Shown here one piece after another: positions 52,748 to 55,578 of a DNA stretch of 64,000 bases. Source of the stretch: Eledone cirrhosa (lineage: Eukaryota); assembly GCA_964016885.1 (NCBI GenBank), contig OZ024748.1, positions 49,414,001 to 49,478,000 of the forward strand, written 5' to 3'. The translations under genes and the position numbers were made by a program. Each line of letters opens with the position of its first letter. Position 1 is the first letter of the stretch. Below the pieces are notes generated by a model. It saw only the letters and a list, made by a program, of their open reading frames with translations. It searched no databases and had not been told where the DNA came from.

Positions 52748-52812
52748 TATTTTGTCTGATGAAGGCATACCATAATTTAACTTGGTATCCTTGAAATATG
52801 TATAATGAAATA
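52748..52812 (+). ncRNA. Minimal type I hammerhead ribozyme, same family as 55480
   Basis: Stem I TATTTTGT/ATGAAATA; CTGATGA (52756-52762); stem II AGGcATACCA/TGGTATCCT; GAAA (52793); stem III ATATGTAT; A52804. Flanks are homologous to the 55480 copy. Confidence 0.72.
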
Positions 52813-52852
52813 AATATGGTTTTATATATATATATATATATATATATATATA

Positions 52853-53389
52853 GATTTTGAGTTTATGTTGGTTGTATACCAACACCTCAGTATGCAGGCT
52901 GGAGCACTCGACGAAGTGCGCAGGTTGGTTTGGTTACTCCGGAGTAGTGTAAAATAAAGTTAAATAAAAGTCAAATGATTAAAATTTAGCTTCGTTTATT
53001 ACTGCTATATATATTTCAGTGACAGCCATCTTTGGCTGTGACCTCTTCAGGCAGTTTGAATTAGTATGGTATAGACAAGTACATATGTTGTTTAGGTGTA
53101 TGATATTGTCAATACTCTGATATGCCCAGTTCCTTGCTGGGTTGTTAATTCACTGGGGAACTGGAGATATGACTCCAGTTCCCCAGTGAATTAACAACCC
53201 AGCAAGGAACTGGGCATATCAGAGTATTGACAATATCATACACCTAAACAACATATGTACTTGTCTATACCATACTAATTCAAACTGCCTGAAGAGGTCA
53301 CAGCCAAAGATGGCTGTCACTGAAATATATATAGCAGTAATAAACGAAGCTAAATTTTAATCATTTGACTTTTATTTAACTTTATTTTA
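52853..53389. mobile_element. Penelope-like inverted pLTR fold-back in (TA)n
   Basis: 217-bp arms (52950-53166 / 53173-53389), no mismatch seen, 6-nt spacer atatga. ~97-nt one-sided tail; (TA)n on both sides; hammerhead in each arm. Confidence 0.8.
53284..53338 (+). ncRNA. Minimal type I hammerhead ribozyme (mirror copy on - strand at 53001-53055)
   Basis: Stem I ACTGC/GCAGT; core CTGAAGA (53289-53295); stem II GGTCACAGCCA-aaga-TGGCTGTCACT; GAAA (53322-53325); palindromic stem III ATATATAT. Predicted cleavage after A53333. Confidence 0.85.
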
Positions 53390-53435
53390 TATATATATAT
53401 ATATATATATATATATATATATATATATATATATA

Positions 53436-53652
53436 TCAGGATGGAATCAGTTTGAAACTGGTTAGACCACTACTTAACGGAGTACTCTATACTTGGGGTA
53501 GTAGAGTATGATTATATTATAAAGAGTCGGGTCCCGACACGGTTGAGCTGTTGCCCTTTCAACAGCTAGTTTCAGACTATTTAGAAAATAGTCTGGAACT
53601 AGCTGTTGATACGGCAAGAGCTCAGCCACCGGGTGCCGACTCTTTATAATAT
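53436..53652 (-). mobile_element. Diverged fold-back element of a related subfamily
   Basis: Arms ~53514-53581 / 53586-53652; tail shared with 26670-26781; adjacent to (TA)n. Confidence 0.6.
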
Positions 53653-54785
53653 ACATAAAAAAAGTGAATGATATATATCCAAACATACATAAATGTATAT
53701 CAAGACGCAGAATGTAAGATTACATAATTCGTCAAGTGTCATATTAAACATTTAATAAAAAATTTTAAAACATAGATACCTGTAAAACTTTGTTTTATCG
53801 ATTGAAAGACAAAGTTAACCTCGGCGGGATTTGGACACAGATCGTAAAGGGACGTAACTATATGCTGCGAAGCATGTTGTCCGACACTCTACTGATACTG
53901 CCAATCCACCGATAATAATTGTTTCTACTTTTGCCACAAGGCCAGCAATTACCCAGTACATTACTGGTACTTTATTTTATCGACCACGTAAGGATGAAAG
54001 GCAAAGCTAACCTCAGCGGGATTTGAACATAAAGGACAGCAACTTTGGGGTAGGCGAAAGTCGATTAAATCGACCCCAATGCGTTACTGGTACTTTATTT
54101 TATTGACCCTGTAAGGATGAAAGGCAAAGCTAACCTCAGCGGGATTTGAACGTAAAGGACAGCAACTCTATGCCACAAAGCATGTTATCCGCCACTCTAC
54201 CTGTACTGCCAATCCAGCGATAATAATAATAATTGTTTCTACTTTAGGCACAAGGCCAGCAATAACCCAGTGCATTACTGGTACTTTATTAATGATTTCT
54301 GACGTAGGTACAAAGCAGTGAGATGGACCATTGTTTTAATGATAAGATGGTGAAAGCAATGGCACATATTTCCGTCTTTTTACATCTCATATTTTCTATG
54401 CTGTTGCTTGACTAGTATTTCGCCTTCCGTGTATACTTTTTAGGCTAACCGACCTTAATGAACCGAAATCACAAGGATCTCCAGAGATCGACTGATGAGA
54501 AGAAGATGTCTTGCGTTTCGTCCTGCTCTCCGTGGTCTTCGCCCACCTTTCTTTGAATTATACACACACACACACACACACACACACACACACACACACA
54601 CACACACACACACACACACACACACACAGACAGACACACACACACACACACACACACACACACACACACACACACACACACACACACACACACACACACA
54701 CACAGACACACACACAGACACACACACAGACACACACACAGACACACACACACACACACGCACACACACAGACACACACACATAT

Positions 54786-54957
54786 ATATGAAAATATTCA
54801 GGACCCCGGATCTAGCTGTCGAATCAAGCTGTCGAAACGGCCGGAGCTCAGCCGTCGGGGTCCTGACTCTTTTCATATTACCCACTATACGACCCCAAGT
54901 ATCGAGTACTCTGGTGCGTTATGGTCCACCTGGTATCTTACTGCACCCTCTTTGTTT
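54786..54957 (+). mobile_element. Fold-back family copy with short left arm
   Basis: gtcGAAACGGCCGGAGCTCAGCCGTCGGGGTCC plus the shared tail; flanked by TA/CA microsatellites. Confidence 0.65.
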
Positions 54958-55155
54958 ATATATATATATATATATATATGTATGTATATATTCTCTTCGC
55001 CTTCTCCGTCTTTTGTTTCTATTTATACACGCACACACATATACACACACATATACATACATACATAGGTACACACACACACACACACACACACACAAAT
55101 ATATATATATATATATATATATATATATATATATATATATATATATATATATATA

Positions 55156-55578
55156 AAAGGGATATTCAATTTGTTGTTAATTCAACAGATATAAATGTTT
55201 ATAACTGATTCAAAGCACTCGACAAGTTTTCTGGAGTATAATATTCAATGATATTAAATAAATGGAAACTATATTTATAAAACCATATTTATTCTATTAT
55301 ATATATTTCAAGGGTACCAAAACTTTGGTACGCTTTCATCAGATAAAATACAAAGTTTGTTTTATAAATGTTGACATAACCAGGAAAGAATAACTTAATG
55401 GTTCAAGTTTATCCAGGAAAAACTTAAACCGTTAAGTTATTCTTTCCTGGTTATGTCAACATTTATAAAACAAACTTTGTATTTTATCTGATGAAAGCGT
55501 ACCAAAGTTTTGGTACCCTTGAAATATATATAATAGAATAAATATGGTTTTATAAATATAGTTTCCATTTATTTAATA
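55156..55578. mobile_element. Penelope-like inverted pLTR fold-back (second family) next to (TA)n
   Basis: Near-perfect ~152-bp arms 55252-55403 / 55427-55578. One-sided tail 55156-55251, with another copy at ~49618-49730. Hammerhead in each arm; right arm interrupted by a Helitron. Confidence 0.78.
55480..55540 (+). ncRNA. Minimal type I hammerhead ribozyme (mirror copy on - strand at 55290-55350)
   Basis: Stem I TATTTTAT/ATAGAATA; CTGATGA (55488-55494); stem II AAGcGTACCAAA/TTTGGTACcCTT; GAAA (55521); stem III ATATATAT. Predicted cleavage after A55532. Confidence 0.82.

Follow-up and report, generated by a model that had tools for sequence, protein, structure and literature searches.

How did five hammerhead ribozyme folds, four of them on facing arms of long palindromes, come to lie within 3 kb of one another in the genome of Eledone cirrhosa? 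We address this question for a 64,000-nt stretch of contig OZ024748.1 (positions 49,414,001 to 49,478,000; hereafter the window), in which a first-pass annotation had described type I hammerheads of two families and had attributed them to recent, (TA)n-targeting Penelope-like elements (PLEs) or to retrozyme-like families. Our analysis makes it quite probable that the folds are the hammerhead motifs of the 3' pseudo-long terminal repeats (pLTRs) of three abundant, (TA)n-inserted PLE families carrying Hydra-clade motifs, and that the palindromes are short two-armed insertions likely produced by twin priming. Thousands of near-identical copies make the PLE insertion mechanism countable in vivo, and the value of the families lies in this countable evidence rather than in their ribozymes.

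Earlier publications already describe hammerheads in PLEs, their occurrence as opposite-strand pairs, inverted copies and tails, targeting of (TA)n and a Hydra element from octopus (PMC8557442, PMC3846280), and the role of PLE hammerheads and the origin of PLE inverted repeats and tails are described as open questions (PMC8557442, PMC11167929). The open-access literature yielded no account of the present families, of a strict pairing of long with short arms or of twin priming in PLEs, and an earlier description is possible; the accessible part of an O. vulgaris repeat paper mentions neither hammerheads nor Hydra.

Five folds in three insertions

A type I hammerhead descriptor applied to the whole window recovered exactly the five folds first described (Table 1), each with a CUGANGA and GAAA core, an NUH cut site and stems I and II of the type I form. 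The AUA cleavage triplet claimed earlier is present in all five, and cuts are predicted where they had been placed (after 53333 and 55532). Block-wise dinucleotide shuffles (n=40) gave a mean of 0.05 folds and a maximum of 1, against five in the window.

The count of two families did not survive alignment. Four of the folds are mirror arms of two inverted repeats, 52950-53166/53173-53389 (217 nt, 100% identity) and 55252-55414/55416-55578 (163 nt, 98% identity), so only three folds are independent, and they belong to three insertions, one each from families A (52853-53389), B (55156-55578) and C (52669-52822), of which B and C are ~79-83% alike; remnants of a fourth family, D, overlooked in the first-pass annotation, accompany them. 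The region from 52.4 to 55.6 kb is a patchwork of short repeats separated by (TA)n tracts, and the long palindromes with one-sided tails beside (TA)n that had been reported around four of the folds are readily seen. Stem III, described as a TA run, is AUAUAUAU in families A and B; that description fails for the 52748 copy of family C, where stem III is AUAUGUAU, while the proposal of a palindromic stem III suited to dimers stands.

The Rfam search suggested by the first-pass annotation returned no hammerhead in the whole window at the gathering threshold, nor among the 36 matches at E<=10 over 52400-55700; the sub-gathering miRNA matches arise because the arms form perfect hairpins.

Coding parents with Hydra-clade motifs

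In the 3.0-Gb genome, a family A 36-mer just past the cut has 3,726 exact matches, and 37,404 are found for a 34-mer common to B, C and their sister subfamilies. The suggestion that the insertions are recent suits family A, for which 43 of the 52 matches listed (best 40 of 456 candidates scored) are 100% identical over 213 nt, and is less fitting for B and C, whose nearest other copies are 94-98% alike.

Coding parents were recovered from the genome matches, which links the arms to reverse transcriptase (RT) and GIY-YIG sequence as expected of PLEs. Traced upstream, family A forms a 4,134-nt unit, and all five long family A loci fetched comprise an inverted 5'-truncated copy, a partial-tandem pLTR, a coding region and a terminal pLTR, the anatomy anticipated for (TA)n-targeting PLEs with inverted 5'-truncated pLTRs. 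The parents encode an RT, identified by its motifs and its likeness to published Hydra proteins, followed by a C-terminal GIY-YIG domain, and their named protein relatives are from Argonauta, Octopus and Hydra. The family A protein carries RRMRWK, ADKT and YRDD, a CxCX5C linker, a GIY-YIG-like VYG...YIG without CCHH, and then CxxC and CxH. Its open reading frame (ORF) is split in all five long copies, at or besides a G-run within the linker that joins RT to endonuclease (EN; L061-L141). This run measures 8-17 nt, varies between copies and even between the arms of one insertion, and often breaks the frame; given this variation we rejected a programmed frameshift between RT and EN; the variation may reflect slippage or sequencing error. 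The ORF of a family C parent (L142/L143) is 52% identical to that of A over 403 residues and is separated from its pLTR by ~1.6 kb of 3' untranslated region. Nuclease sequence lies upstream of the B and D pLTRs also, the family A nuclease matching the sequence upstream of the B, C and D pLTRs at E 1e-17 to 1e-31.

As Hydra-clade diagnostics, Craig et al. 2021 give RWK, DKT, a CxCX5C linker, the lack of CCHH, and CxxC/CxH (PMC8557442). RWK and the change from DKG to DKT both occur in family A, and DKT occurs in family C, whose N-terminus is broken; the linker, the lack of CCHH and the CxxC and CxH around E and N were seen in the translated sequences of A, C and D and in the C-terminus of B; and (TA)n insertion, also a Hydra-clade trait, was found in the flanks of sampled copies. 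The clade is already known for canonical hammerheads, placed near the 3' end and with a short self-complementary helix III as here, for (TA)n targeting and for a member in Octopus bimaculoides (PMC8557442). By these motifs, families A, B and C read as new members of this known clade, and their ribozymes are ordinary for it. They resemble Hydra-1_Obim in protein motifs, compared by eye, and in target, but the hammerhead listed for that element has another sequence (PMC8557442), so the families are distinct from it, and they differ from published Hydra elements in their very high copy number, as does family D with 34,975 exact motif matches. Beyond these families, a fold-back at L067:7402-8711 belongs to a different type of PLE, whose linker is CxxxCxxC and whose GIY-YIG contains a CxxC (Neptune- or Naiad-like by the motifs of PMC8557442), so several PLE clades here share this insertion style.

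The coding parents bear directly on the retrozyme-like alternative, according to which non-autonomous non-LTR retrozymes, replicating as small circular RNAs, left the folds. Type I hammerheads, short non-coding units and very high copy number are common to both, and retrozymes have themselves been argued to derive from PLE pLTRs (10.64898/2026.07.22.740005), but the window contains no head-to-tail array of hammerhead monomers, and its arms are pieces from the 3' side of coding elements and vary in length. We therefore set this alternative aside as very improbable.

How two-armed insertions form

We sampled the first 100 exact matches to the family A 36-mer, which lie on one contig between 1.8 and 92 Mb and represent 70 insertions. 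Their 3' ends fall at +56 (short) or +152 (long) from the predicted cut. Head-to-head two-armed insertions make up 46 of the 70, one-armed insertions 20 (11 short, 9 long) and complex ones 4, and each of the 39 scorable two-armed insertions joins one long arm to one short arm (binomial p=3.6e-12). By eye, the same rule holds in 5/5 B/C pairs and 5/5 D pairs, the D pair L321/L322 having been excluded as a combination of two different subtypes. A tail is thereby present at one end, of 96 nt in A, ~94 in B, 90 in C and 80 in D; the tails lie outside the ORF, the first ATG of family A following 55 nt after the long end. The tails of families A-D share short motifs, CTACTCC-like near the start and TCGAGTGCT/TTGAGTACT mid-tail, a candidate protein-binding site between two RT start points.

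The two arms of an insertion agree at polymorphic sites, in 22/22 cases at -97 and 14/14 at -151 (linked sites, with a minor allele of ~45% at both) and with one discordance in 17 at -132, and so share a single source. Gene conversion may have caused this agreement, though 55 private differences remain between arms over ~4.6 kb of overlap in 26 pairs.

Their relative reach is what separates twin priming from snap-back self-priming, in which one cDNA or antisense RNA would fold at a local palindrome and copy itself into the second arm. Snap-back has been proposed for rotifer PLEs (PMC3846280), and it would explain why arms share variants, why junctions often coincide with small palindromes (TCATATGA at -169 and the hairpin of stem II at -37) and why the short arm lies within the range of the long arm in 18 of 37 simple cases. 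In the other 19, however, the 5' end of the short arm lies >10 nt beyond that of the long arm, and in 7 of the 37 the arms have no overlap, so that a self-copy would need a template switch; neither arm contains the other in these 19, a pattern that points to twin priming rather than snap-back. With about half of the insertions contradicting it and the 39/39 rule left unexplained, snap-back appears unlikely as the general route.

Twin priming also has a biochemical counterpart. The PLE protein of anole Poseidon nicks and extends both strands in vitro (Frangieh et al. 2024, PMC11167929), and its RT begins at two internal positions of the RNA, which delimit the tail, and uses uncut RNA (PMC11167929). 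Published PLE insertions likewise comprise a partial tandem, an inverted 5'-truncated copy and an optional tail (PMC8557442, PMC3846280), and the insertions described here share this anatomy, a tail bounded by two fixed ends and an AT-rich target (PMC8557442, PMC3846280, PMC11167929); the one-long-one-short rule is strict here, whereas those papers call the corresponding arrangement 'often' present or 'optional'. The rule, the shared source variants and the non-nested arms fit this two-strand, two-start-site chemistry and argue against snap-back. By this route the nuclease would nick both strands of a (TA)n tract, and each nick would prime reverse transcription at one of two internal RNA start sites, one site per strand; cDNAs begun in the upstream pLTR of the RNA would end by run-off at the RNA 5' terminus, which probably corresponds to the transcription start, and the resulting 220-320-nt arms would be joined head to head. 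The short insertions would then have been copied from RNA left uncut at the hammerhead.

The same counts bear on whether the palindromes are real. Fold-back chimeras of reads or assembly might be suspected from the perfect 217-nt inverted repeat and from the contigs of four public runs, which hold the families and in no case span the palindrome stretch, just as AT-rich DNA might invite chance motifs. Yet the arms end at two fixed asymmetric points, carry the 55 private changes and have varied junctions, the families are also present in sequencing runs of other samples, and shuffling all but eliminates the folds, so that we find artefact or chance scarcely credible.

Ribozyme, 5' ends and family D

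Across 22 of 25 family representatives (three were left out of the alignment), 89.4% of cells are paired, against 30-51% in slid controls, and 16 of 21 stem pairs show two-sided changes, the covariation that genuine ribozymes were expected to show. The search pattern fixed the core and the outer stem III letters and left stems I-II and inner stem III free, so core invariance is no evidence; N7 takes all four bases among the representatives. Judged by this pairing record, the hammerhead folds are real and under selection. Stem III is self-complementary (TATATA, TATGTA, TGCGCA or TGATCA) in 23 of the 25, and by folding energies closing it in a monomer costs 2.2-3.4 kcal/mol, while a modelled double hammerhead is better than two monomers for A and B and barely so for C. 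We expect that selection maintains the ribozyme of active elements and that its cleavage would be weak and would take place either in a dimer paired through the palindromic stem III or with assistance from a protein. Cervera and De la Pena 2014 found that dimer-type PLE hammerheads cleaved weakly as multimers and not as monomers, and the anole PLE hammerhead is protein-assisted (PMC11167929). The present folds resemble those of Cervera and De la Pena 2014 in being type I with a long helix II and a palindromic helix III, and the families in their opposite-strand pairs 100-700 bp apart, their number per genome and a U3-A8 core variant. They differ in that helix III is present as a 6-nt inner palindrome of the four kinds just listed, rather than absent, and in the AUA triplet; octopus was not found in the covered portion of the PLE-hammerhead survey. 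Loci L001-L274, with 1.1 Mb of flanks, hold at least 10 further hammerhead families with palindromic stem III (CTAG, CG, CCGCGG, CCATGG, CCGATCGG, TACGTA, TGCGCA), and PLE ends are clustered because insertion of each takes place in (TA)n next to another.

For the window copies themselves, the first-pass annotation proposed that either transcribed strand would contain one ribozyme and its antisense. The two are indeed juxtaposed, but either whole palindrome folds as one hairpin with a stem I probability of 0, so read-through RNA is predicted to form one long hairpin that would silence the ribozymes. Working units on read-through are not likely, and the window copies are likely inert by-products. 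Tens of thousands of such hairpin-forming loci in the genome are PLE ends missed by Rfam and Pfam.

Element 5' ends do not support the ribozyme cut as their definer. Among 118 family A arm ends, 33 fall in -173..-164 and 5 in -9..0; the 154 nt separating these intervals hold 34, another 34 lie farther upstream, and 12 are downstream of the cut. Genome-wide, a break exactly at the cut with a non-TA junction is seen in 7 copies, compared with 2 for a control site. The A of TTCA, a motif that we take to be initiator-like, occupies position -167. Comparable TCACT/CCACT motifs are kept at -125 in B and -138 in C subfamilies, and all window arms begin within 6 nt of these sites. The promoter and start site of Penelope lie in its pLTR (PMC2377424). 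The pile-up, the initiator-like site and the Penelope precedent together suggest that -167 is probably the RNA 5' end and that the stumps are run-off cDNAs. The families yield exact predictions of start, RT initiation and cut sites for cheap RNA tests.

Several observations count against parts of this account. Pfam gave only a sub-threshold GIY-YIG for the parent protein (E=7e-4), Pfam and PDB profile searches did not name the RT, and Hydra-clade placement is by motifs and by-eye comparison with published proteins. Hydra elements are generally '<3 kb' (PMC8557442), compared with 4,134 nt for family A and 1.25 kb from its ORF stop to the cut, although size is a tendency rather than a diagnostic, and the tails exceed the printed 30-40 bp (PMC8557442, PMC3846280). 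The family A sample comes from one contig, and besides the complex cases 7 of the 46 two-armed insertions are unscorable, their outer arm being broken. The genome-wide cut-junction count misses cut ends joined to (TA)n, which look like ends at -1..-9. The reading of -167 as a transcription start draws only on the initiator-like motif, and the same position carries an 8-nt palindrome and TA microhomology. The B/C-clade pile-up comprises eye-read examples and the three window copies, as scripted alignments ran on through inverted tails and TA runs. In the models, dimers of other structure are more stable than the double hammerhead in each family (double hammerhead vs other: A, -37.2 vs -42.8; B, -26.6 vs -29.0; C, -21.4 vs -25.4). 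Finally, 0 of 9 tandem insertions have an upstream repeat starting at -167, the starts being scattered from -255 to -1888, which implies that longer or circular templates exist.

Ribozyme-made circles would supply such templates: the two sense hammerheads of a tandem transcript would cut as a dimer, the unit RNA would be ligated, and RT would cross the sealed cut for more than one round, as in a model proposed in PMC4209133. Long tandem copies would come from circles and short stumps from uncut linear RNA, so that circles complement twin priming and do not replace it. All three repeats of tandem-plus-inverted insertions share source variants (2-12 sites each, 5/5 long loci), and strong selection on the fold requires some role. 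The same pattern could nevertheless come from read-through of tandem loci or from template jumps, 11 variants are common to only two of the three repeats, and for another PLE the cut was the end of no RNA-seq read, while mutating the ribozyme left insertion in vitro normal (PMC11167929). We regard circles as a serious possibility, while leaning towards twin priming on linear RNA without them.

Family D differs in having, in its full copies, a hammerhead with a stable stem III, a GUC cut site and a UUGANAA core. By hand count over the 100 listed matches, A occupies position 8 without exception, every base occurs at N7, and position 3 holds U in 74, C in 25 and G in 1. Its 5'-end pile-up (TTAGT/TCAGT, initiator-like) lies inside loop II, and most copies are the 3' half only: of 30 sampled copies, 18 break inside loop II and 10 hold the 5' half, and genome-wide the 3' half has 34,975 exact matches and the 5' half 7,148, by patterns that differ in stringency. 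Should this pile-up mark the start site, a complete ribozyme would be encoded by the downstream pLTR alone. More speculatively still than for circles, the genome might be a readable record of the PLE cycle, in which an RT dimer would prime on the two target strands from a pair of fixed RNA sites, invariably one of each, uncut linear RNA would give stumps stopping at the transcription start, and hammerhead-made circles would give tandems; the start of D inside loop II of a monomer-competent U3-A8 hammerhead would then constitute a built-in positional switch.

Table 1. Hammerhead folds, pLTR arms and flanking tracts in the window; offsets are relative to the predicted cut
Feature	Position	Strand	Remarks
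Family C pLTR arm	52669..52822	+	starts at -136 (initiator-like CCACT, A at -138); breaks off ~18-28 nt past cut
Type I hammerhead fold, family C	52748..52812	+	stem III AUAUGUAU; predicted cut after 52804
(TA)15 target/flank	52823..52852		repeat scan
Family A long arm	52853..53166	-	-161 to +152, including 96-nt tail ~52853-52949
Type I hammerhead fold, family A mirror arm	53001..53055	-	predicted cut between 53006 and 53005
Family A short arm	53167..53389	+	-167 to +56; start coincides exactly with 5'-end pile-up of family
Type I hammerhead fold, family A	53284..53338	+	stem III AUAUAUAU; predicted cut after 53333
(TA)24 target/flank	53388..53436		repeat scan
Family B long arm	55156..55414	-	~-121 to long end; tail ~55156-55245, then (TA)28 at 55099-55155
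Type I hammerhead fold, family B mirror arm	55290..55350	-	predicted cut between 55298 and 55297
Family B short arm	55410..55578	+	-123 to +46; family short end +52, last 6 nt replaced by unrelated repeat
Type I hammerhead fold, family B	55480..55540	+	predicted cut after 55532
Older family D-like pLTR remnants, same insertion style	52512..52668		weak match 52624-52670
Older family D-like fold-back, tail on left	53437..53645		weak matches 53481-53507, 53589-53633
Family D-like fold-back, only 3' half of hammerhead, long end on right	54790..54955	+	family D comparison
Other family D copies	42051-42266, 43807-43995, 18552-18748		same anatomy as A-C; also L191, L175, L313

The repeat that replaces the end of the family B short arm, at 55579-56100, is unclassified and has internal direct repeats of 69-102 nt. 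Between the insertions, a common short interspersed repeat is present at 53790-54290 in several incomplete copies, seen as direct repeats of 35-93 nt, and an older B/C-clade pLTR tail fragment, ~80% alike, lies at 49601-49752 (-). Farther off, 13193-16356 is a 48-nt minisatellite of 66 copies, 96% alike, with one frame open for 875 codons.

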